DNA from: Bacillota bacterium
Lineage (GTDB): Bacteria; Sysuimicrobiota; Sysuimicrobiia; Sysuimicrobiales; Segetimicrobiaceae
Assembly (NCBI GenBank): GCA_021324975.1
Contig: JAJPIA010000069.1
Location: 5,020-69,019 of the forward strand
Direction of reading: 5' to 3'
Length of the DNA: 64,000 nucleotides
In this document: one piece after another, positions 4,717-23,216 of the stretch
Layout: each line of letters starts with the position of its first letter
Numbering within the stretch: the first letter of the stretch is position 1
Notes under the pieces: model-generated
The model's database searches: none
Seen by the model: the letters and a program-made list of their open reading frames with translations, nothing else
What the model was told of the DNA's origin: nothing
Translations under genes and position numbers: made by a program

Positions 4717-4792
4717 TGGGGTGGCCGACGGGACTTGAACCCGCAACCCCCAGAGCCACAGTCTGGTGCTCTGCCCTTGAGCTACGGCCACC
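4717..4792 (-). tRNA. tRNA-His (anticodon GTG) with encoded G-1 and encoded CCA
   Basis: Manual fold: G-1 + acceptor GTGGCCG/CGGCCAC, D-arm GCTC/GAGC, anticodon stem CCAGA/TCTGG with loop CTGTGGC, T-arm GCGGG-TTCAAGT-CCCGT, discriminator C, CCA. Confidence 0.9.
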
Positions 4793-4901: not shown

Positions 4902-6110
4902 TTAGCCGAGCATGACCTGCTGAGGTCGGTCCGGCTCGCCCACGGTGTATTCGTGCGCGCCAACGAGCGGCGCGCCCTCGTCGAAGCGGCTCGCTCGGAA
5001 CGGGCGGAGGTCCACGAGCCGCGGCGCGCCGTCGACGATCCACTCGGCGACCGCGCACCCCACGGCCGGCGCGGTCTTGAAGGACGAGCCGTTGTCGCCC
5101 GTGCAGAACCACAGGCCGGCGAGGCTCGGATGACGGTCGATGACCGGCTTGCCGTCGTCCGTCAGCGTGATCGCGCCGGCCCAGCCGCCGCGCATCGGCG
5201 CGTGGGCCATGCCTGGGATCCGCCGCAGCATCCGCTCGCGGGCCCGCCACGCGTAGGCGCCGTCCACGCCCTCGCTCCACCCGTCCAGATCGTCGAGTTC
5301 CTGTCGCTGCGAGATACCGACCAGCGTCGAGGCGAAGTGCGGCCCTTCGGGGCGCAACCACATCTCATAGTGACTGTCGATGCATACGGGGTGCGGGGCG
5401 TCGACGGCGGGCGGGCGCCGGAAGACGGCGACCTGCGTGCGCATCGGGCGGAGCGCGGCCGGCACGCCGAGATCCCGCAGCATCGGCACCGTCCATGCGC
5501 CGCCGGCGAGCACGACGGCGCCGGCGGCGATCGGCCCGCCGCTCGTCTCCACGCCGTGGACGCGGCCGTGCGCCGCCCGCACGGCGCGCACGTCCGTCCC
5601 CAGCCGGATCTCCGCGCCTAAGTCCCGGGCCCGGCTGAGGAAGCCGTGGGTCGTCTCGACCGGGTCCGCAAACCCGGAGTCGGGCTCGTACGCCGCGGCC
5701 GCCACGTCGTCGACATTCCAGAACGGCACGATCCGGCGCAACTCGTCGGGCCCGACCAGGACCATATTGATGCCGATCCCGCGGAGCATGCCGACGTTCG
5801 CGCGGAGCTTCGCGTCATCCGCCGGCGCGACGAAGCGCACCATCCCCGCGGGCACGAATCCCGCGGAGCCCGCCCCTACCATGTCGCCCCAGTGCTGGAA
5901 GTACGGCAGGCTCGCAAATGCCAGGCGCGCCTCCGGCTCGTTCGTGTAGTGCATCCGGACGAGCGCGCCCGATTTGCCGGTCGCTCCGGCCGCCGGCCAG
6001 CGCCGCTCGCAGAGCACGACGCGCCCGGCATGCCGAGCCGCAAGATGCATCGCCACGCTCGCGCCGACGACACCGCCTCCAACCACCACGACATCCGCTG
6101 CCGGCTCCAT
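4902..6110 (-). CDS. FAD-dependent oxidoreductase (DAO family; glycine/D-amino-acid/sarcosine oxidase-like)
   Basis: N-terminal VVVVGGGVVGASVAMHLA dinucleotide fold; ATG at 6108-6110 with GGAGG 5 nt upstream. Confidence 0.75.
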   Translation of the reverse strand: MEPAADVVVVGGGVVGASVAMHLAARHAGRVVLCERRWPAAGATGKSGALVRMHYTNEPEARLAFASLPYFQHWGDMVGAGSAGFVPAGMVRFVAPADDAKLRANVGMLRGIGINMVLVGPDELRRIVPFWNVDDVAAAAYEPDSGFADPVETTHGFLSRARDLGAEIRLGTDVRAVRAAHGRVHGVETSGGPIAAGAVVLAGGAWTVPMLRDLGVPAALRPMRTQVAVFRRPPAVDAPHPVCIDSHYEMWLRPEGPHFASTLVGISQRQELDDLDGWSEGVDGAYAWRARERMLRRIPGMAHAPMRGGWAGAITLTDDGKPVIDRHPSLAGLWFCTGDNGSSFKTAPAVGCAVAEWIVDGAPRLVDLRPFRASRFDEGAPLVGAHEYTVGEPDRPQQVMLG

Positions 6111-6169
6111 ATCCGCCTCCCGTGAACCGCGTAGTGACAACGTCGAGGTCGTACCCTTCGGGCCGTCGC

Positions 6170-9094
6170 TCAGGATCGCCCGTCGAGCGCGGCCGCGAGC
6201 GCCTCGGCCGGATGCCACGCCCGGCGTCCCGTGCCGTGCGCGATCTGCTGGCGGCACGATGCGCCCGTCGCGACGATGATCGCGTTCTGCGGCGCTCCCC
6301 GGACGGCCTTGAAGAGCACGCGCTCGCCCATCGCGAGTGATACGTCGTAGTGCTCACGCTCGAACCCAAACGACCCGGCCATGCCGCAGCACCCCGAGTC
6401 GACCGGCTCGACGCGCCACCCCGGCACCGCGCCGAGCACGGCGAGCGACGGCCCCATGCCGACCATCGCCTTTTGGTGGCAGTGGCCGTGGACCACGATC
6501 CGGCGGTCCTCGCACGCGTACGGCAGCCGCGTGCCCGTGCCGTGAAGTTCGGCGAGAAACTCCTCGAACAAGTAGCTCCGTCCCGCGACGGCGGCCGACG
6601 CCGGGCCCGGCACCAGGTCCGGGTACTCGTCCTTGAGGGTCACCGCGCACGACGGCTCCAGCCCGACGATCGGGACTCCCTGCTCGGCGTACGGTCGGAG
6701 GCGCTCCACGTTCGTCTCGGCCAGCGCGCGCGCCTCGCGCAGCATGCCGTTGGAAATCATCGGCCGCCCGCAGCAGCGCGCGGGCGCGAGCTCGACGGCG
6801 CACCCCGCGGCTTCGAGCACGCGGACCGCGGCCCGGCCGATGGCGGGATAATAGTACTCGGTGAACGTGTCGACGAGCAGCGCCACGCGGGTCTTGGGAC
6901 CCGGCGGCGCCGACCGGCCCGCGATGCGTGCCGCCCCGTTCCCAGCACCGCGCCGGCGCCGCGCAAACCAGTGGGTGAAGCGCTCGCGTGCGAACGCCGG
7001 GAAGCGCCGCCGCGCGTCGATCCCGAACGCGCGGCCCAGGCTCCACCGCACCGGCGGCGCCTGGAGCAGCCAGTTGGACACGGGCGCGGTGGCGCAGCCG
7101 ATCGGACCGAGCGCGGCGATCGTGCCGAACAACCGCGCGCGCGGGGGCAGCCCGTGCTCGTCGTAGTAGCTCGCCAGCACCTCATGCTTCAGCTTGGCCA
7201 TGTCCACGTTGCTGGGGCACTCGGCTTTGCACGCCTTGCAGGCGATGCAGAGATCCATCACCTCGTACAGGTCGCGGCTACCGAGCGCGCCGGGCAACCG
7301 GCCGGCGATCGCCGCGCGGAGCGCGTTTGCCCGGCCGCGCGTGCTGTGCGCCTCGTCCAGCGTCACCATGTACGAGGGGCACATCGTCCCCCCACGCTGC
7401 TTCCGGCACGCACCGACGCCGCTGCACAGCTCCACGGCGTTGGCAAACCCGCCATCGCGGGCGAAGTCCTGGATGGTGACCGGTTCGGCGGCGCGATACG
7501 CGGGACCGTACCGGAGGGATTGCGTCATCGGCGGCGCGTCCACGATCTTCCCGGGGTTCATGAGGCCTTCGGGATCGAAGCTGGCTTTGACCTCGCGGAA
7601 CGCGTGATAGAGCATCGGCCCAAACATTTTCTCCAGAAACTCGCCGCGCGACAGGCCGTCCCCGTGCTCGCCGCTCAGGGCGCCGCCAAACTCCAGGACG
7701 AGGTCGCTGATCTCCTCGGCGATCGCGCGCATTTCCGCGACATCACGCGGCTGCTTGAGATCCAGGATGGGGCGCGTGTGCAGCAACCCGACGCTCGCAT
7801 GCCCGTAAAACGATGCCTCGGTCCCATGCCGGCGCACGATCTCACGGAACCGCCGCGTGTACTCGGCGATCCGCTCCGGCGGGACCGCGCTGTCCTCCAC
7901 AAACGCCACCGGCTTGCGCGCCGTCTTCATCCCGAGCAGCAGCCCCACGCCGGCCTCGCGCACCGCCCAGAGATTGGCCTGCGCCGCCGGATCGACGATC
8001 CGGCGCATCTCGCCGCGGAACCCGGCGCGGCGCATCCTCGCCTCGAGGGCATCCAGCCGCGGCACCAGCTCCGCGGGGCTGTCCCCCGCGTACTCGACGG
8101 CGAGGACGGCGCCCGGATCGCCGTCGACGAAGGTGAGCTTGTGCCGGTGTTCGCGCGCCTGGCGCGCCATGTCCAGGATGAACTTGTCCGTCAACTCGAC
8201 CGCGCTGGGCCCGGTCGCAAGGGCATCGGGTGTGTGTTCCAGCGCCGGCACGATGTCATCGAACTGGAAGACCGCGAGCACCGTGGCGGCGGGACGCCGC
8301 GCGAGGCGAATCGTCGCCTCCGTGACCACCGCCAGCGTGCCCTCGGATCCGACGATCAGCTTGGCGAGGTTCATCGGCCGTTCGGGTGGAAACTCGTCGA
8401 GATTGTAGCCGCCCACGCGCCGTTGCACCTTCGGGAAGCGCCGGGCCACCTCGTCGCGCGTCGCCGCGACGATACGGCCGATCTCACGGTAGATCCGGCC
8501 TTCGGGATCGTCCCCGCGCGCGCGGGCGGCCGCGTCCGCCGCGTCGACCGGCCCGAACGACACGGGCGTCCCGCCGGCCAGCGCCGCACGCACCGCGAGC
8601 ACCGTGTCGACCGTTTTGCCGTAGACGATGGAGCGGGACCCCGAGGAGTTGTTTCCGATCATCCCTCCGATCGTGGCTCGGTTGCTCGTGGACGTCTCGG
8701 GCCCGAAGATGTATCCCATGGGCGCCAGGGCGGCCAGCAACTCGCTCCGCACGATGCCCGGCTCGACCCTGGCCCAGCCGGCATCGGTGTTCACCTCGAG
8801 GACGCGGTTCATGTATTTCGAAAAATCGAGCACCACCGCACGGCCGACGGCCTGCCCGGCCAGGCTGGTCCCCCCGCCGCGCGGCAGGACGGGAACGCCG
8901 GCTGCGCGGGTGATCTCGAGCACCGCCTGGACATCGTCGGCGTCCCGGGGGAGCACCACCCCGAGCGGCACGATCTCGTAGATGCTGGCGTCCGTGCTGT
9001 AGAGCACGCGCGATGCCGCGTCGAACCGCACCTCGCCGCGCACGCGGCGGCCCAGGTCGTGCGCGAGGTCGCGCATGAACGTGCGGTCGGTCAT
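6170..9094 (-). CDS. FAD-linked oxidase (PCMH FAD-binding domain) fused to a 4Fe-4S/CCG cysteine-rich domain (GlcD-GlcF/D-lactate dehydrogenase-like fusion)
   Basis: FAD_binding_4-like N-terminus, two Cys clusters (CSGVGACRKQ...CP, CIACKACKAECP), C-terminal CCG-like repeats (CCGRP, CCGMAG); start ATG 9092-9094, 4-bp overlap with upstream gene. Confidence 0.8.
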   Translation of the reverse strand: MTDRTFMRDLAHDLGRRVRGEVRFDAASRVLYSTDASIYEIVPLGVVLPRDADDVQAVLEITRAAGVPVLPRGGGTSLAGQAVGRAVVLDFSKYMNRVLEVNTDAGWARVEPGIVRSELLAALAPMGYIFGPETSTSNRATIGGMIGNNSSGSRSIVYGKTVDTVLAVRAALAGGTPVSFGPVDAADAAARARGDDPEGRIYREIGRIVAATRDEVARRFPKVQRRVGGYNLDEFPPERPMNLAKLIVGSEGTLAVVTEATIRLARRPAATVLAVFQFDDIVPALEHTPDALATGPSAVELTDKFILDMARQAREHRHKLTFVDGDPGAVLAVEYAGDSPAELVPRLDALEARMRRAGFRGEMRRIVDPAAQANLWAVREAGVGLLLGMKTARKPVAFVEDSAVPPERIAEYTRRFREIVRRHGTEASFYGHASVGLLHTRPILDLKQPRDVAEMRAIAEEISDLVLEFGGALSGEHGDGLSRGEFLEKMFGPMLYHAFREVKASFDPEGLMNPGKIVDAPPMTQSLRYGPAYRAAEPVTIQDFARDGGFANAVELCSGVGACRKQRGGTMCPSYMVTLDEAHSTRGRANALRAAIAGRLPGALGSRDLYEVMDLCIACKACKAECPSNVDMAKLKHEVLASYYDEHGLPPRARLFGTIAALGPIGCATAPVSNWLLQAPPVRWSLGRAFGIDARRRFPAFARERFTHWFARRRRGAGNGAARIAGRSAPPGPKTRVALLVDTFTEYYYPAIGRAAVRVLEAAGCAVELAPARCCGRPMISNGMLREARALAETNVERLRPYAEQGVPIVGLEPSCAVTLKDEYPDLVPGPASAAVAGRSYLFEEFLAELHGTGTRLPYACEDRRIVVHGHCHQKAMVGMGPSLAVLGAVPGWRVEPVDSGCCGMAGSFGFEREHYDVSLAMGERVLFKAVRGAPQNAIIVATGASCRQQIAHGTGRRAWHPAEALAAALDGRS

Positions 9095-11498: not shown

Positions 11499-11927
11499 CT
11501 ATCGCCGGCGCTCGTACGGAACGATGTGCTCCCACTCGGACGCGTCGGATCTCGCCACCACCGCGACCACCGGTTCCGTCTCGCTGAGGTTGACCACCTC
11601 GTGCGGGACGCCCGGCTCGATGAAAATGAAGTCGCCCGCCTCGTTGTCGAGGCTGAACGCGCAGCCCGGACCGTACTCGTGCCGCACGCGGCCCTGTAGG
11701 ATGTACAGCATGACCTCGAAGCCGACGTGGACGTGCGCATGCGCGACGCCGCCGGGTGGAATCACGGCCACGTTCATCGACAACCGCTTCGCACCGACAT
11801 TGTTCGCGGAGAGCCCCGTCTTATACCGGATGTTGTTCCACGTGCGGTGCACGCCACTGCCCCGGATGGTGAGGATGCCGTTTCCGCCGTCGACGCCGCC
11901 GCTGAGATGGTCGTCCGCAGCCGGCAT
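11499..11927 (-). CDS. Cupin domain protein (RmlC-like cupin)
   Basis: Cupin motifs (G..HAHVHVGFEVMLYILQG ... GDFIFIEPGVPHEVVN). Confidence 0.7.
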   Translation of the reverse strand: MPAADDHLSGGVDGGNGILTIRGSGVHRTWNNIRYKTGLSANNVGAKRLSMNVAVIPPGGVAHAHVHVGFEVMLYILQGRVRHEYGPGCAFSLDNEAGDFIFIEPGVPHEVVNLSETEPVVAVVARSDASEWEHIVPYERRR

Positions 11928-11969: not shown

Positions 11970-14204
11970 TCACGCGGGTAGATCCCTGGCCGAGACCACG
12001 GTGTTCTTCCCGGCCCGCTTGGCGTGCGTCCGGGCGGCCTCGGCGCGCAGCAGCAACTCGTCCGCCGTAGCGGCGTCGTCGGGGAAACCCGCGACACCCA
12101 CGGAAATCGTCGCGCGCCGATCGAGCTGGACGTCCCCCAGGGACGGCGTCCAATCCTCGACGGTCAGCCGCAGCCGCTCGGCGACGCCGGCCGCGACACC
12201 CGCGGGGATATGCGACAGGATGACGCCGAAGATATCGTGACCGAGGCGGCACACGAGATCGACTTCCCGTACCGCGGACACGAAGTGCCCGGCGAGGCTG
12301 CGCAGCACGTCATCCCTCTCCGCTGAACCCAGCCCCACAGTCACTCCGTCGAAGTCGTCCACGTCGATCACGAGCAGCGAAAGCGGGTACGCGTAGCGGT
12401 GTGCGAGCCGCGCTTCCCGGTCGAGTACGTCCAGACAATACGCGCGCGTGTACGCGTCGGTTGCCGCGTCGCGGACCTGCGTGCGCTCGAGGCGTAACGC
12501 CAGCTGCTCTTGCTCTTCCCGCTGGAGTGCGAGCCGGCTCGCCGTGGCCCGCTGGTATTCCGCCGCGACCGCGCGGATCGTGACGCCGAGGCCGGCGCTC
12601 AGCCGTCTGGCCGTCGCCATCGGCCCGCCCGTGCCGGCCGTCTCCCGCCCCAGTTCTTCCCACAACAGGTCTTCGAGCGTCGCATATGCGTGCACCGCAT
12701 CCGCGAGCGCCAACCCAGTTTGGATGCACGCCTGCGTCTGTGCAACGACGCCGCGCCGGAGCTCGTCGTCGTCGGCAGAGTGCAGCCAGCGGGCCAGCGC
12801 ATGGAGGTGCGCCGCGCATGCCGTCTGCAACGACGCGCCGTCGCGGGTCGCAAACGCGGGCACGGCCGCGAGGCGCGCCGCCCATGAGGTCGCAATCCTG
12901 CCGGCGGAGCTGCCGAGGGCGCGGGCGAACGCCTGAGGTTCCTCCACAGCCGTGGAGGTTCGCATCCCCCCTATACCGGCTCCTGCTTCACGCGGGATGC
13001 CGGGCGCAGTTCCGGCTATGCGCTCGGGGCCCGCGGCGCCCGGTGAGTGAGGCCCGCAGGAGTGCCCGGCGGCCACGCACCACTCGCGGTGCACGTCGCC
13101 GATGGCCTCGCACCCCGTCGCGGTCACCACGACCGTGTCCTCGAGCTTGATGTGGCCCGTGTCGGGATCGAGCACATCGGTCTCAACGGACACGACCATC
13201 CCGGGCTCCAGGATCCCGGTCGCTTCCTCGGTAATTTCCGGAGGCTCGTGGCTGACAAGACCCAAGCCGTGGGCTTGAAACTTTCCGAGGCGGCCCCAGG
13301 GACCGGCGCTCACCGCATCGGCGCCGATCCGCCACAGTTCCCCGCAGGGCAGGCCGGCCGAGATGCTCCGCCGGATCGTCGCCTGCGCCGCCACGCAGCC
13401 GTCGAACATCTCCCGCGCCCGAGCCGGGGCGGACCCGATAGAGCCCATGCGCGCGACGTCCGAACGATAGCCATCCAGCTCGGCGCCCGCGTCCACGTGC
13501 AACGGACGCCCCCGGCCCCATGGCTCGGACGTCGCCGCCCGCACCAATCCCGGGCCCACGTTCGTCAAGGCATACAGGTACGCGGCGTCGCGCGTCTCGA
13601 GCTGGTGCCGCACTGCCGCGGCGACGTCGCGCATCGAGAGGTCGGGACGGCCGTCGATGAGCACTGCCCGAATCGCCTCCGCGGTGATCCGGTGGACCGC
13701 TTCGAGCCGCTCGATCTCCGCCGGGCGCTTCACGGCCCGCAGTTCCGCCAAGACCGGACTCGCGTCCGCGAAGGTCGCGCCGGGGAGATCACGGCGCAGC
13801 ACCTCGAAGGCATCCGCGGGCAGAAACGGCAACTCAACGCCGACGGCCCCGTTGGCGTGACCGCGGCGGCGCAACGCGTCCGCGGCTGTGGCGGCCACCT
13901 CGACCGTCATGTTCGGCCGGCGCGGCGCCCAATAGATGTCACTGATCCAGAGCGGCCCGAACGCCTGCAGAAAGTCCAACTCGTTGTCCCGGCCGACGTA
14001 GAAGGCGGAATCCAGCCGGCCGGCCGGCACGGCCACCGCCGCAAGATACTGACCGCGCCCAAATTGCGACTCCCGGCCGAAGAATGGGTTGTAGTAGCCA
14101 CCCGTCAGGTACGACACGTTGTGCCGGCTCGTCGCCAGCACCACGTCCATGCCCCGCGCACGCATCGCGCGCTGCAGCCGTTCCCCGTCAAAGGGAACCA
14201 TCAC
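11970..14204 (-). CDS. Single 744-aa ORF: N-terminal M24 metallopeptidase (Xaa-Pro aminopeptidase/creatinase-like) joined by a G/P/A-rich linker to a sensor domain and a GGDEF domain with degenerate active site (GHDIF)
   Basis: M24 motifs DAGAELDGYRSDVARM and HGLGLVSHEPPEI; GGDEF-domain region RLGHDIFGVIL; no stop between; SD GGAGGCGGAGG before ATG at 14204; possible internal start at 12965. Confidence 0.6.
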   Translation of the reverse strand: MMVPFDGERLQRAMRARGMDVVLATSRHNVSYLTGGYYNPFFGRESQFGRGQYLAAVAVPAGRLDSAFYVGRDNELDFLQAFGPLWISDIYWAPRRPNMTVEVAATAADALRRRGHANGAVGVELPFLPADAFEVLRRDLPGATFADASPVLAELRAVKRPAEIERLEAVHRITAEAIRAVLIDGRPDLSMRDVAAAVRHQLETRDAAYLYALTNVGPGLVRAATSEPWGRGRPLHVDAGAELDGYRSDVARMGSIGSAPARAREMFDGCVAAQATIRRSISAGLPCGELWRIGADAVSAGPWGRLGKFQAHGLGLVSHEPPEITEEATGILEPGMVVSVETDVLDPDTGHIKLEDTVVVTATGCEAIGDVHREWCVAAGHSCGPHSPGAAGPERIAGTAPGIPREAGAGIGGMRTSTAVEEPQAFARALGSSAGRIATSWAARLAAVPAFATRDGASLQTACAAHLHALARWLHSADDDELRRGVVAQTQACIQTGLALADAVHAYATLEDLLWEELGRETAGTGGPMATARRLSAGLGVTIRAVAAEYQRATASRLALQREEQEQLALRLERTQVRDAATDAYTRAYCLDVLDREARLAHRYAYPLSLLVIDVDDFDGVTVGLGSAERDDVLRSLAGHFVSAVREVDLVCRLGHDIFGVILSHIPAGVAAGVAERLRLTVEDWTPSLGDVQLDRRATISVGVAGFPDDAATADELLLRAEAARTHAKRAGKNTVVSARDLPA

Positions 14205-14292: not shown

Positions 14293-15054
14293 TCACTGTT
14301 CAAACGTGACGACCGCGTAGCGCGTGAGGTCGTTCACCGTTTGCCCCGTAGAGAGGCGGGCCTGGTCCCAGCCATGCGCGCCGGTGCCCGGAGGCACGGT
14401 GATGATCCCGACCAGGTCGCCGTTTCGCGAGTCGACGACCGCCGACCCCGCAAGCCCCAGCCCTGCGACCTCGAGGCCGTAGTTTCCCTCCGCATCCGAG
14501 ACGAGGACGCCGCGGGGCGCGATCCGTTGGCCCGCGGCAGTTGCCGGCAGCGAGACGGGAATCGTCTGCGTCGCGCCAAAGTCCGCGTACATCGAGCACG
14601 ACCGGCACAACTTGTTGTACGAGGCAGGCCGGCTGCTGAACGACGCCACGAGCGATACGACATCGCCCATCCACGCGAGGTTGTCGACGGTTCCCGCCGT
14701 ACCGTCGGCGTAACGCACCGTGATGTCAACGCCGAGACGGTTGAACGGGACCCCGGTCGCAAGCGGCGTGGCCACGAACGGCGCCAGGCAGCGCTTCGCC
14801 GTCGCCACGTAGGCGCGCGGGTCCCGGACTGTCACGACGATCCCGAGACAGCGCGCGGGTGCTCCGCGGCCGTGGCTCCGCACGATAACCTGAGCTGTGA
14901 TCGCGCGAAGGAGGTACGTGTCGGAGACGCTCGGAAACGCCTGCCCCTCCTGGGTCGCCATCGCGCTCATCACGAGACCGAGGAGCACCGCGAGCGCCCG
15001 CCGCGTCGCACCCGCGAGGCTCGGCATCATTGGCGGGGTCGCCCTGGAGTTCAT
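14293..15054 (-). CDS. Secreted trypsin-like (S1/PF13365-like) peptidase-domain protein, possibly non-catalytic (K-R in place of catalytic His)
   Basis: Signal peptide; C-terminal GSAVVDSRNGDLVGII resembling G-x-S-G-G-P-L-V-N-x-x-G-E-V-I-G-I; ATAKRC where TAAHC is expected. Confidence 0.4.
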   Translation of the reverse strand: MNSRATPPMMPSLAGATRRALAVLLGLVMSAMATQEGQAFPSVSDTYLLRAITAQVIVRSHGRGAPARCLGIVVTVRDPRAYVATAKRCLAPFVATPLATGVPFNRLGVDITVRYADGTAGTVDNLAWMGDVVSLVASFSSRPASYNKLCRSCSMYADFGATQTIPVSLPATAAGQRIAPRGVLVSDAEGNYGLEVAGLGLAGSAVVDSRNGDLVGIITVPPGTGAHGWDQARLSTGQTVNDLTRYAVVTFEQ

Positions 15055-16079
15055 TTCTGGCCCCCGGGATCATGTCCGCCGGACCCGCCGGTGCCGCCCG
15101 GCGGCCCGTCGGCCGAGCCGCTGCCCGGGCCCGACGTGTCCTCGTTCGGCAACGAACTGCCGAGATTCGCGCCGCCCGGCGCGGGACCTTTCCCGGGCGC
15201 GCCGGTGGACGGGGAGCTCGAACCGCCGGATGCCTTCGAGCCCCCGGAGCGGCCCGCGGCCCCCGCGCCACCCGGCCGCCCCGATTCACTTGCCGTCGCC
15301 GGCGCCCAACCGCCGGAGCCAGCCCCCGCCGCCGAAGCCTGCGCGGAGGCGGAGACGCCGCCCATCCCGGTGCTTCCCGTCGCGCTCGTGTGTCCGGAGG
15401 CGTTGGCCGAGGTCTCGCCGGCGGGCGCAGCCGGTTGGGTTCCGCGGTTCGCGCCCGAGTTGGCGACCCCGGTCGGGCCCGCTGCTCCCGACGCGTTGAT
15501 GTTGCCCGGGCCCGCCCCGCTCTGCGACGGCGCCCCCGCGGTGACACCCGCCGCATCGCCGGCTCGGCCACTTCCCTCACCGGTAGAGCCGCTGCTCGAG
15601 GCGGACGCGGACGTCCGCGGCACCGTGTCGCCCACACCCGAGCCGACCGACGGGTCCCACGCAGGCACAGTCGCGAACCCCGCGGGCGGCGGTGTCACGA
15701 TGCCCGACGGCAACGTCGCGCTGGACCGCCTGGGCCCGGGCACGATGTCGAGCGGAACCGTTTGGGGCACCACCGCCGGCAACCGGTGCGCCGGCGCGGC
15801 GCCGCGGACACGGGTAGCTGTCGGAGCCGGCCGCGCCTCCGCGGTGACCGCGACCTGCCAAGACGGCAGAATGGAAAAAAACGGTGTGCCCGGCGCGACC
15901 GCGATGAGCGATGCCGCAACCAGGAACGCCGGCGGTGCCGCCGAGAGTCTCGCCACCGAGAGCCCCCCTCCAAGCCCAAGGTGATCGTGTCGCTGCCGGT
16001 AGCGCTCCACCGGTCCGGCGACCCGGCCTCGGGCTGGACCTAGAGGCCGGCGGGCCGGGCGCCGCGCACGGGCCTCCAC
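15051..16079 (-). CDS. Membrane-anchored low-complexity Gly/Ser/Ala-rich protein (start uncertain)
   Basis: N-terminal hydrophobic segment then G/S/A-rich tail; ATGA overlap with downstream peptidase-like gene; competing Pro-rich antisense ORF shares wobble positions. Confidence 0.35.
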   Translation of the reverse strand: MEARARRPARRPLGPARGRVAGPVERYRQRHDHLGLGGGLSVARLSAAPPAFLVAASLIAVAPGTPFFSILPSWQVAVTAEARPAPTATRVRGAAPAHRLPAVVPQTVPLDIVPGPRRSSATLPSGIVTPPPAGFATVPAWDPSVGSGVGDTVPRTSASASSSGSTGEGSGRAGDAAGVTAGAPSQSGAGPGNINASGAAGPTGVANSGANRGTQPAAPAGETSANASGHTSATGSTGMGGVSASAQASAAGAGSGGWAPATASESGRPGGAGAAGRSGGSKASGGSSSPSTGAPGKGPAPGGANLGSSLPNEDTSGPGSGSADGPPGGTGGSGGHDPGGQK

Positions 16080-16170
16080 TTACCCGTACCCGCGGCCGGT
16101 CGCAGTCAATCTCCTTCACATTGGCACACTTCGCCGCTCAACAGATCCAAGCGACGTGCCGCGGATGCCG

Positions 16171-17550
16171 CTACAGGCGATTCAGTCCGTTTAGAGCAGC
16201 GACCTTGTAGGCTTCGGCGAGCGTGGGATAGTTGAACACCGCGTCACGAAGATATTCGACCATGCCCTGCTGGTCGATCAGCGTCTGTCCGATATGCACC
16301 AGTTCGGTGGCGCTCTGCCCGAGGATATGGACGGCGAGCAGCTTCAGGGTGTGGCGATCAAAGAGCAGCTTCAGGATGCCGGACCGGCCGCCGCTGATCT
16401 GCACGCGCGACAACTCCCGAAACGGCGCCACGCCCACCTCGTACGGAACGGACCGTTCCGTGAGGTCCCGCTCGGTGGGACCGATCATGGCGATCTCGGG
16501 AAAGGTGTACATGCCGTACGGCAGATTCGGCGGCAGAGCCGGCGCGTCGACCCCAAACGCGTGCAGCGCCGCGAGCCGGCCCTGCTCCATGGATGTGGAC
16601 GCGAGGCTGGGGAAGCCGATGATGTCACCTGCCGCGTAGACTCCGGGGCAGGCGGTCTGAAAGTGTTCGTCCACCTTGATACGGCCGCGACGGTCGGTCT
16701 CCACGCCGATCGCGCCCAGGTTGAGCGTGGGCGAGGCGCCTTCCCGGCCCGCGGAAAACATCAACGACTCGGTCGTGAAGCTCTTGCCGCTCTCCAGCTC
16801 GACGAGGACACGCCCGTTTTCCGTCGTTCGCACCGCCGAGACGCGCTCACCGAAGCGCAGCGTGATCCCCTCGTCCCGCATGTGGTAGTACAAGGCGTCC
16901 TGAATCTCGTCATCGACAAAGTCGAGCGGGCGGCGGCGCGCGTCGACCAGGACCACCTGCACGCCCAGCACCTGGAAGATCGTCGCGTATTCCAGGCCGA
17001 CGACGCCGGCGCCGACGAACGTCATCGAACGCGGGATCTCCTGCAGGCGGAGCAGCCCGTCGCTGTCGATCACCCGCCGGTCGTCGAACTCGATGTCCGC
17101 GGGGCGGCCCGGGACCGTGCCGACGGCGATCACCGTCCGCTGCGTTCGCAGGCGCCGCTGGCCGTCGGCCGTCGTGACGAGGAGTTCGTGCGGCTCCACG
17201 AAGCTCGCCGTGCCCGCGATGATATCGACGCGATTGCGGATCAGTTGATCGCGGACGATGTGCGCCTCGTTTTCGATCACCCGCTGCGTTCGAAACGTCA
17301 GATCATCGATCGTAATCTGTTCCTTCACCCGGTGCGCCGCACCGTAGACGGAACGCTGCCGGATACCGGAGAGGTAGGCGACCGCTTCGCGCAACGTCTT
17401 GCTGGGAATGGTGCCTTGGTAGAGGCACCCGCCGCCGACGTCGGCGTTGCGCTCCACCACCGCGACACGCCGGCCCATCTTGGCGGCCGCGATCGCGGCT
17501 CGCTGCCCCGCGGGGCCGCTTCCCAATACCACCAGCTCGTACTCGTTCAT
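16171..17550 (-). CDS. sthA: Soluble pyridine nucleotide transhydrogenase (Si-specific NAD(P)+ transhydrogenase)
   Basis: Pyridine nucleotide-disulfide oxidoreductase fold with single-Cys motif GGGCLYQGTIPSK (no redox disulfide), ~459 aa, C-terminal dimerisation domain. Confidence 0.8.
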   Translation of the reverse strand: MNEYELVVLGSGPAGQRAAIAAAKMGRRVAVVERNADVGGGCLYQGTIPSKTLREAVAYLSGIRQRSVYGAAHRVKEQITIDDLTFRTQRVIENEAHIVRDQLIRNRVDIIAGTASFVEPHELLVTTADGQRRLRTQRTVIAVGTVPGRPADIEFDDRRVIDSDGLLRLQEIPRSMTFVGAGVVGLEYATIFQVLGVQVVLVDARRRPLDFVDDEIQDALYYHMRDEGITLRFGERVSAVRTTENGRVLVELESGKSFTTESLMFSAGREGASPTLNLGAIGVETDRRGRIKVDEHFQTACPGVYAAGDIIGFPSLASTSMEQGRLAALHAFGVDAPALPPNLPYGMYTFPEIAMIGPTERDLTERSVPYEVGVAPFRELSRVQISGGRSGILKLLFDRHTLKLLAVHILGQSATELVHIGQTLIDQQGMVEYLRDAVFNYPTLAEAYKVAALNGLNRL

Positions 17551-17757
17551 CGTCCGCGTGTGTCACGTCTTTCGGGCCTCAGCGACGGCGGTCCTCTCCC
17601 GAAGATATCTGGAGTTTCTCTACCCAATCGCACCCGCCGCTCGGCGGTGCAGCAGGACCCGGCGCCCGCACATCAAAATATCGCGGTCCCTACGTGGCCG
17701 GTCCGTGAAACGGCGGCCGGACGCGGCGGGGAACGCCAACGGAGGTGAGTCGTCGAC

Positions 17758-22241: not shown

Positions 22242-23216
22242 ATGCGGTCTCGAGACGGGACCGACAAGGCACTGGAGTTTCTGGCGCGGCTCGCCCGGGA
22301 ATTTGTCGCGGTGCTGAGCGTGACACATCTCGTGGCGCGCGTCCTGGAGGGCCTGCGCGAGGCGGCCGGATTCGACTCGGCTGCCATCGCGCTCATCGAC
22401 GAGCGCAATCCCGACCGCCTCACGGTCGTCGGCGCCGCCGGGCTTTGCGCGCACCTGCGCGACACGACGATCCCCCGCGACGAGAGCATGTGGTGGGCCG
22501 CCGTCGACGCCGCGGCCCCGCTCCGCGCCATGGACATGCGGCAGGATCCGCGCGTGTGGAGCCGCCGCGACGACGTGGGCGCGGGCATCTACGCGCCGCT
22601 CCTTGCGCACGGGCGCGCCATCGGGGCGATGAGCGTCCAGCGCTCCGGAGAGCCCCCGTTCACCGGCGACGATCTCGATCTCCTGTCCCTGCTCGCGTCC
22701 TACCTCGGCGGTGTGTTCGAGGCTGCCCGAACGCACGAGCGCGTGGCCGAGCTCGCCTTTGCCGACCCGCTGACCGAACTGCCCAACCGCCGCGCCTTCC
22801 TGGATCGGGTGGGCGTGGAAGTGCTCCGCAGCGCGCGCACGGGCCAGCCATTCAGCATCGCGCTCGTGGATGTCGACCGGTTTAAACGCGTCAACGACCG
22901 GTACGGGCACACGACCGGCGACGCCGCCCTTCGCAGCGTCGGGCAAACGATGCGCCGGCAGACGCGCAGCTACGATCTCGTGGCCCGGTACGGGGGAGAC
23001 GAATTTGCACTGTTGTTCCCGAATACGCCGGGCAAGATCGCGCAGATGATCCCAACGCGGTTTTGGCAGATTCCGATTGCCGGTGGCGCGGCGCCCGCCG
23101 AGAGCTACGTCACCCTCTCCTGGGGAATTGCCGCCCACCCGGACGACGGCGATTCGGCCGATGGACTCCTCAACGCCGCCGACGGACGATTGTACGCGAT
23201 GAAGGGCACCCGCTAA
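22242..23216 (+). CDS. GAF-domain diguanylate cyclase (intact RYGGDEF)
   Basis: GAF-like N-half, GGDEF C-half with RYGGDEF; GGAGG SD upstream of ATG. Confidence 0.85.
   Translation: MRSRDGTDKALEFLARLAREFVAVLSVTHLVARVLEGLREAAGFDSAAIALIDERNPDRLTVVGAAGLCAHLRDTTIPRDESMWWAAVDAAAPLRAMDMRQDPRVWSRRDDVGAGIYAPLLAHGRAIGAMSVQRSGEPPFTGDDLDLLSLLASYLGGVFEAARTHERVAELAFADPLTELPNRRAFLDRVGVEVLRSARTGQPFSIALVDVDRFKRVNDRYGHTTGDAALRSVGQTMRRQTRSYDLVARYGGDEFALLFPNTPGKIAQMIPTRFWQIPIAGGAAPAESYVTLSWGIAAHPDDGDSADGLLNAADGRLYAMKGTR

Follow-up and report, generated by a model that had tools for sequence, protein, structure and literature searches.

Within a 64,000-nucleotide stretch of a Bacillota bacterium genome (contig JAJPIA010000069.1 of assembly GCA_021324975.1), called the window throughout this paper, a single open reading frame (ORF) on the minus strand at positions 11970–14204 joins a peptidase of family M24 to a GGDEF domain. 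This fused ORF is very probably the young and accidental product of read-through between two neighboring genes of the same orientation, confined to one lineage, and its GGDEF half most likely serves as a receptor for cyclic di-GMP (c-di-GMP). Fusion of adjacent genes by stop codon loss is a well-known process, and the window provides a new instance of it. The ancestral locus would have consisted of a gene for an M24B-type metallohydrolase of ~382 amino acids (aa), ~80 nucleotides (nt) of spacer holding the ribosome-binding site of the second gene, and a gene for a ~333-aa protein with a non-heme globin-like domain and a degenerate GGDEF domain. In the lineage of the window, the M24 stop codon TGA would have been changed to TGC. 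Small insertions and deletions (indels), together with the lack of any other in-frame stop codon, would have allowed translation to continue across the spacer into the downstream gene without a shift of frame. Translation from the M24 start at 14201 would then yield a polypeptide of 743 aa and ~79 kDa, composed of the M24 protein, a probably flexible linker of 31 residues, the globin-like domain, and the GGDEF domain. Because the AGGAG motif and an ATG were retained, a free GGDEF protein of 331 aa is probably still made from position 12965.

The Fused Reading Frame

The ORF runs without interruption on the minus strand from GTG 14204 (744 codons) or ATG 14201 (743 codons) to the stop codon TGA at 11972–11970. 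The gene callers placed the start at ATG 14201, giving the 743-aa product. A first-pass annotation, made from the sequence alone, had described an uninterrupted 744-codon M24-GGDEF frame without stating its strand, and this description was confirmed. In order, the ORF encodes a Creatinase_N domain, a Peptidase_M24 domain, the G/P/A-rich linker, an all-helical domain, and the GGDEF domain. The exact 743-aa product is carried by four contigs, and the protein is also listed under JGI/IMG, NCBI, and GEM sources. At the DNA level, the window, a MEGAHIT assembly (ENA ERZ27279679, 133 kb contig), and a Logan assembly (SRR5579871) have the same ORF base for base, and it is identical across the loci L004, L005, and L006. 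Since three different assemblies, one of them present under two locus identifiers, gave the identical sequence at the junction, a sequencing error at this site is unlikely.

Related Lineages and the Origin of the Junction

The 90% identity cluster of the 743-aa protein also contains three M24-only members of 382 aa. These members come from many samples, with at least 31 contigs and two metagenome-assembled genomes (GCA_021324255.1, GCA_037024435.1) carrying them. A first full-length protein search had been swamped by GGDEF words and had missed most of the M24 relatives, and these 382-aa proteins were found by a cluster look-up. From the M24 gene through the genes for cupin, pterin-4a dehydratase, glyoxalase, and FAD-oxidase, the contigs of this sister lineage (L007) keep the gene order of the window, their DNA being about 85% identical, and the sister M24 protein is 92% identical to that of the window. 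The sister M24 gene (382 aa) ends with TGA and is followed by a spacer of 80 nt, a separate GGDEF gene (333 aa) with a GTG start 8 nt after an AGGAG motif, and the cupin gene. The first-pass annotation had offered two explanations for the frame, a genuine peptidase-signaling fusion or the loss of the M24 stop codon with an internal start kept for the GGDEF protein, and it had proposed a comparison of orthologs to find out whether these genes are separate or fused. The two separate genes in the syntenic sister lineage speak for the stop loss and against the genuine fusion.

A third lineage, L028 (JGI 3300054680), showed the order AMIN, DoxX, SthA, M24 remnant, GGDEF gene, and cupin gene. The remnant comprises only the last ~95 bp of the M24 gene, ending with TGA, and the 81-nt spacer behind it holds a further in-frame stop codon TAA. 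Therefore, the M24 gene can be lost while the GGDEF-cupin pair stays.

Junction alignments (A1, A5) placed codon 383 of the fused ORF, TGC for cysteine (13056–13058, minus strand), at the position of the M24 stop codon TGA of both related lineages. The G/P/A-rich linker, estimated at ~35 aa by the first-pass annotation and found to comprise the 31 residues aa 383–413 (CGPHSPGAAGPERIAGTAPGIPREAGAGIGG; 12966–13058, minus strand), corresponds in these alignments to the former intergenic spacer in translated form. Past the former stop codon the window spacer measures 84 nt, compared to 80 nt in the sister lineage and 81 nt in L028, and it carries window-specific insertions of +1 and +2. With its additional 4 nt relative to the sister spacer the downstream gene comes into frame; the distance from the ancestral M24 stop to the position of the sister's GTG start is 87 nt in the window. 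Between window and sister, no stretch of the region has diverged more than the spacer outside AGCAGGAGCCGG. The third-position GC content of the linker is about 0.65, compared to 0.83–1.0 in the flanking coding sequence. Given the base composition of the window, a spacer of 30 codons is free of stop codons with a probability of ~0.53, and read-through is therefore easy once the stop is lost. Stop loss and a frame match are enough to produce the fusion.

The Shine-Dalgarno (SD) motif AGGAG (12980–12984, minus strand) lies inside AGCAGGAGCCGG, which is invariant in all three lineages. It is followed by the ATG at 12963–12965 (minus strand, Met414), where independent initiation of the GGDEF protein probably takes place and with which the N-termini of the homologs of the GGDEF half align. 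The combination of AGGAG/GGGGGG and an ATG at 12965 had already been noticed in the first pass and was found as described, with AGGAG at 12984–12980. For a comparison of the start codons, the regions 12963–12990 of the window (minus strand), ~7215–7235 of L007, and ~7880–7935 of L028 were used. The GTG start of the sister reads GGG in the window, while the CTG two codons further on in the sister reads ATG (12965) in the window. The position of the GGDEF start codon thus varies, with GTG 8 nt after AGGAG in the sister and ATG 14 nt after it in the window. In L028 a CTG is found at the position of the window ATG, and the gene was called from a GTG further downstream, within the arm of a hairpin. 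This perfect 7-bp hairpin, CCTCCAC-GGCT-GTGGAGG, starts 5 nt past the ATG of the window (12941–12958, minus strand). Its DNA is unchanged across the three lineages despite a synonymous divergence (dS) of 0.35 elsewhere, and the fold z-score of the surrounding 91 nt at the hairpin is only -1.5. The hairpin contains an anti-SD-like CCUCC and an SD-like GGAGG and, judged by these motifs, could modulate the initiation of the GGDEF gene. Because the AGGAG spacing of 14 nt is long and the hairpin follows the ATG, the efficiency of initiation at 12965 is uncertain. A scan of the junction for promoters and terminators revealed nothing promoter-like and two terminator-like sites, in numbers close to those of shuffled sequence.

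An exchange of selenocysteine and cysteine typically shows up as a TGA/TGC pair. Selenocysteine recoding was rejected, since a read-through of the sister TGA is out of frame with the GGDEF gene of the sister, and it is also ruled out by the second in-frame stop codon (TAA) in the spacer of L028. Of the two explanations offered in the first pass, the stop loss with a retained internal start is supported by the two genes of the sister, by TGA versus TGC at the junction, and by the survival of the SD motif and a start codon. The locus resembles other read-through fusions of adjacent bacterial genes in its co-oriented neighbors, a point mutation of the stop codon, and a spacer turned into a linker. 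Unlike in usual cases, the split, fused, and partly deleted states are all found in close relatives, and an internal ribosome-binding site and start codon persist.

Homologs and the Direction of Change

The best 120 M24 homologs listed (92% to about 45% identity) are 333–490 aa long and have no domains other than the two of the M24 half, apart from an N-terminal ThiS/MoaD domain in 2 of the 120; a GGDEF domain was found in none of them. In those M24 homologs whose full sequence was read, the C-terminus lies no more than a few residues from the position of the sister's stop codon. Using the middle domain as query, an exhaustive HMMER search of 1.8 billion representatives yielded six proteins of 244–329 aa, which match from their N-terminus. 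All six representatives of this GGDEF-half family are therefore standalone proteins. The middle domain gave no match in a word-indexed protein search. No close relative was detected among the GTDB species-representative genomes, only unrelated GGDEF and M24 fragments, and when metagenomes were scanned with the GGDEF half, the sister lineage was the sole related match, alongside unrelated GGDEF proteins. The genes downstream of M24 relatives with 72, 65, and 54% identity are unrelated or there are none on the contig, and the nearest relative of the GGDEF family (57%) has no M24 neighbor. A conserved M24-GGDEF operon as functional link was therefore rejected, as outside the clade the relatives of neither gene neighbor the other. 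The fused architecture itself was not found in the sister lineage, in L028, among the 120 listed M24 matches, or in the six representatives of the GGDEF family. The suggestion of a genuine conserved peptidase-signaling fusion was thus not borne out; neither half has a fused homolog in these searches, and the third lineage lost most of its M24 gene and kept the GGDEF gene. Because the outgroups of both the M24 and the GGDEF half are standalone proteins and the linker is without third-position GC bias, two separate genes are taken as the original state, from which the lineage of the window acquired the fusion.

The GGDEF Half, a Predicted c-di-GMP Receptor

The C-terminal protein consists of an all-helical N-terminal domain (aa 414–576; 12477–12965, minus strand) and a GGDEF domain (aa 578–734; 12003–12473, minus strand; Pfam PF00990, E-value 1e-23, 84 bits). 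Alignment with PleD placed the degenerate active site (A-site) GHDIF (aa 655–659; 12228–12242, minus strand) at the GGEEF of PleD, confirming the deviation from GG(D/E)EF seen in the first pass. The RxxD motif of the inhibitory site (I-site) is intact, with REVD (aa 646–649; 12258–12269, minus strand), five residues upstream of GHDIF, aligned to the RAID of PleD. At the position of the guanine-binding Asn a Thr is found, while the guanine-binding Asp was kept (these residues we take to be N335 and D344 in PleD numbering). Besides the clade of the window, the family comprises only six representatives of 50% identity clusters. The signature is degenerate in 8 of 8 family members (GHDIF, GHDTF, GSDVF, GADVF, DVDEF, GIDEF, DDGVF, and GEVEC). 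Invariant in the eight sequences are R, E, and D of the I-site (RExD), the second Arg of this site, and the Arg that precedes the signature.

In the literature, a degenerate GGDEF domain whose signature is preceded by an RxxD motif at a distance of five residues is classed as a c-di-GMP receptor, an example being PssE of Listeria (PMC4125290). As the RxxD inhibitory site was kept, the GGDEF half is by this criterion most likely a c-di-GMP-binding receptor with an output via the helical sensor domain. Synthesis of c-di-GMP does not appear plausible because of the GHDIF signature and the exchange of the guanine-binding Asn for Thr. The whole small family probably binds c-di-GMP without synthesizing it. 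The earlier proposal of a probably inactive c-di-GMP receptor was strengthened by the invariant I-site and the degenerate signature in every family member. PelD and PopA are further degenerate-GGDEF receptors, which bind c-di-GMP via the I-site. Like PelD, PopA, and PssE, the GGDEF domain of the window combines a degenerate signature with RxxD five residues upstream and a second I-site Arg. It differs from them by the globin-like N-terminal domain and by a neighborhood in the window that holds no polysaccharide or cell-cycle machinery.

In the first pass, a Pfam search of the middle segment had been recommended; residues 371–575 gave no match, even at an E-value of 10. AlphaFold2, supplied with the seven-sequence family alignment, modeled the GGDEF protein with a pLDDT of 87.8 and five helices, the last of which is a 47-residue connector; for the N-terminal domain as a separate model, pLDDT was 88.5 and pTM 0.81. 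The modeled GGDEF fold is canonical and superposes on solved GGDEF structures at a root mean square deviation of 1.5–2 Å. When the N-terminal domain was modeled alone, nearly all of the top 50 Foldseek matches were globin-fold proteins, the best matches included, at E-values of only about 1e-2 and with TM-scores of 0.63–0.73 among the best. Compared to the modeled domain, TM-scores were 0.70 for the DosC globin (4zvb), 0.72–0.73 for the BpeGReg globin, and 0.71/0.79 for the RsbR N-terminal domain (2bnl). Weak Pfam matches to RsbRD_N and Protoglobin were each obtained for 2 of 8 family members (best E-value for RsbRD_N 3.5e-5, not in the window protein). No histidine, such as a proximal heme ligand, is invariant in the family alignments of the N-terminal domain, and heme binding is therefore unlikely. 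From the models, the best reading of this domain is a non-heme, RsbR-like globin sensor. It would share with the RsbR non-heme globin domain the fold, as predicted, and the lack of a conserved histidine; the window region itself has no Pfam match. Its predicted globin fold, long helix, and GGDEF domain resemble the globin-coupled sensor diguanylate cyclases DosC of E. coli and BpeGReg of Bordetella. Unlike these, the protein has a degenerate cyclase site, and its family has no conserved histidine in the N-terminal domain.

The M24 Half

The N-terminal half contains a Creatinase_N domain (aa 8–158; 13731–14183, minus strand; Pfam PF01321, E-value 4e-13) and a pita-bread Peptidase_M24 domain (aa 166–362; 13119–13709, minus strand; Pfam PF00557, E-value 7e-28), with scores of 50.4 bits (gathering cutoff 22) and 98.2 bits (gathering cutoff 23), respectively. 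Alignment to the prolidases 3q6d, 1wy2, and 1pv9 revealed all five metal ligands, D238, D249, H312, E341, and E355, so that the intact metal-ligand motifs reported in the first pass were verified against solved structures. Counted along the chain, the partners of D238, D249, E341, and E355 in Pyrococcus furiosus prolidase 1pv9 are D209, D220, E313, and E327; H312 aligned with the His of the 1pv9 GHGVGL motif (presumably H284). The HEPP histidine motif is present as well. From these features the protein is a member of peptidase family M24B (Xaa-Pro peptidase/creatinase fold), and the M24 half is probably an active hydrolase.

In common with M24B metallopeptidases such as prolidase and Xaa-Pro aminopeptidase (1pv9; Bacillus anthracis 3q6d), the M24 half has Creatinase_N and pita-bread Peptidase_M24 domains, the five ligands, and the HEPP motif, and it falls into a large family whose members, roughly 380 aa long, carry the annotation Xaa-Pro peptidase family. 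It differs from the solved M24B prolidases, to which its alignments are weak (E-value about 1e-20), and in the lineage of the window it has a C-terminal extension of 360 aa. The NCBIfam equivalog cutoffs were missed (PepQ NF040821, 73 bits versus 630; NF008131, 41 versus 465). Unlike the named M24B equivalogs (PepQ, aminopeptidase P), the window M24 stays far under every NCBIfam cutoff, so that no substrate was assigned.

Another type of fusion was observed in the same M24 family, with an N-terminal ThiS/MoaD domain (PF02597) in front of M24 (P0002 and P0134, 46–49% identical to the M24 half). One ThiS/MoaD-M24 cluster has 34 member sequences, and this fusion may be more established than the GGDEF fusion. 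An M24 gene with 48–61% identity was also seen in L001 (ERZ25039587:contig_131253, 5887–7030), broken by a frameshift, on a contig with many short gene calls that looks like an error-prone assembly. No GGDEF gene was found downstream of the L001 M24 gene.

Selection and Alternative Explanations

Comparing window and sister, dS was about 0.35, and omega was 0.12 for the M24 protein and 0.28 for the GGDEF protein (0.34 for its helical and 0.23 for its GGDEF domain), the omega values being averages over both lineages. In relative-rate counts of outgroup-assigned changes, the fused versus the split lineage had 8 versus 9 and 10 versus 4 changes in the M24 protein and 10 versus 18 and 12 versus 13 changes in the GGDEF protein, none of them significantly different. 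By these estimates both halves are under purifying selection, no rate acceleration is seen in the fused lineage, and both halves look functional.

Several observations weigh against a derived read-through fusion with an independently translated second half. L007 and L028 are about 94% alike, and each is about 84–87% alike to the window. Due to this closeness, the direction of change is deduced from distant outgroups without the gene pair and not from an outgroup sharing the neighborhood. The fused form is one sequence on four contigs, with ERZ27279679 and SRR5579871 possibly from the same sample, and the fusion may not be fixed in the population. The averaging of omega over both lineages also counts here. 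Finally, the new ATG could have replaced the sister's GTG by chance and not by selection for independent initiation, and the AGGAG-ATG spacing of 14 nt is long.

Among the alternatives, an adaptive fusion, with the peptidase under c-di-GMP or sensor control or tethering the receptor, as a new kind of c-di-GMP effector enzyme, survives best and is still improbable. The purifying selection on both halves without rate acceleration in the fused lineage would fit it, yet each half would be expected to be under such selection even if the fusion were of no consequence. Two lineages have the genes side by side in the same orientation, but this adjacency is limited to a small clade, one member of which deleted M24 and kept the GGDEF gene. 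A G/P/A-rich and probably flexible linker is compatible with a working two-domain protein; however, codon adaptation is absent from the linker, in which a ribosome-binding site persists, and no other M24-GGDEF fusion occurs among the 120 listed M24 matches or the six GGDEF-family representatives. In sequence, neighborhood, and model comparisons, no evidence for a cooperation of peptidase and receptor was found. It is improbable that the fusion was kept as useful because c-di-GMP or the signal of the globin-like domain controls or localizes the M24 hydrolase. If true, a c-di-GMP-regulated peptidase would be a hitherto undescribed kind of effector, seen as it originates while its unfused ancestor lives on in the sister lineage.

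A reversed order of events, with the fused gene as ancestor that was split by the gain of a stop and a start codon in the common ancestor of L007 and L028, is very improbable. As L007 and L028 are mutually closest, one event on either branch explains the distribution equally well. The distant homologs argue otherwise, since the M24 proteins that were read end near the sister's stop and all those listed are of standalone length, while the GGDEF-family proteins all begin at the sister's gene start. The window spacer is moreover without the GC bias of coding third positions, and a fission needs a stop codon, a ribosome-binding site, and a start codon together, yet AGGAG is already present in the window. 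A sequencing or assembly artifact at the junction, suggested by a fused form known as one sequence from possibly one sample and by the frameshift errors in the M24 gene of the related long contig L001, can practically be dismissed, as the DNA is identical in the window, ERZ27279679 (MEGAHIT), and SRR5579871 (Logan), the protein is listed under JGI/IMG, NCBI, and GEM, and the junction is set apart from the sister by a stop substitution, numerous further substitutions, and three distinct indels, as is typical of non-coding DNA that has diverged and not of a single read error.

Genomic Neighborhood

A cupin gene (142 aa; 11499–11927, minus strand) lies 42 nt past the fused ORF. It follows the GGDEF gene in all three lineages and so accompanies that gene more consistently than M24 does. 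The segment upstream of M24 (window 14320–17597; L007 5254–5887; L028 5737–7710) differs among the three lineages, with sthA (16171–17550) and two ORFs of unknown function in the window, DoxX only in the sister, and DoxX and sthA in L028. By this comparison it looks like a local hotspot of rearrangement or deletion. Around ~15000–15750, the window shows a GC content of 0.77–0.78 and long overlapping ORFs on both strands, which are absent from the sister lineage. Their P/G/A/S-rich low-complexity products (342-aa ORF at 15051–16079, minus strand, and the opposite-strand ORFs) had no Pfam match. A second, separate GGDEF gene, encoding a GAF and a GGDEF domain (324 aa), is conserved in the three lineages about 8 kb away; its window position of ~22242–23216 (plus strand) was converted from L004 4335–5309 and is approximate. 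Across the 64-kb window, Rfam yielded a single match above the gathering score, a tRNA gene at 4720–4791 (minus strand).

Implications

The locus calls for caution in annotation and in "Rosetta stone" inference, as a striking two-function architecture may differ from two ordinary genes by a single point mutation. Such caution applies in a genome of 70% GC, where chance alone leaves many spacers without a stop codon (about 0.5 for 30 codons), and it extends to reading function into single-lineage fusions in high-GC genomes generally. At the same time, the locus offers a clean natural example of the first step of a gene fusion, in which split, fused, and partly deleted versions of one locus can be compared. 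The C-terminal protein belongs to a small uncharacterized family combining a globin-like, histidine-less sensor with a GGDEF domain that is catalytically degenerate and has its I-site preserved in every case, and this family is a candidate c-di-GMP receptor family.

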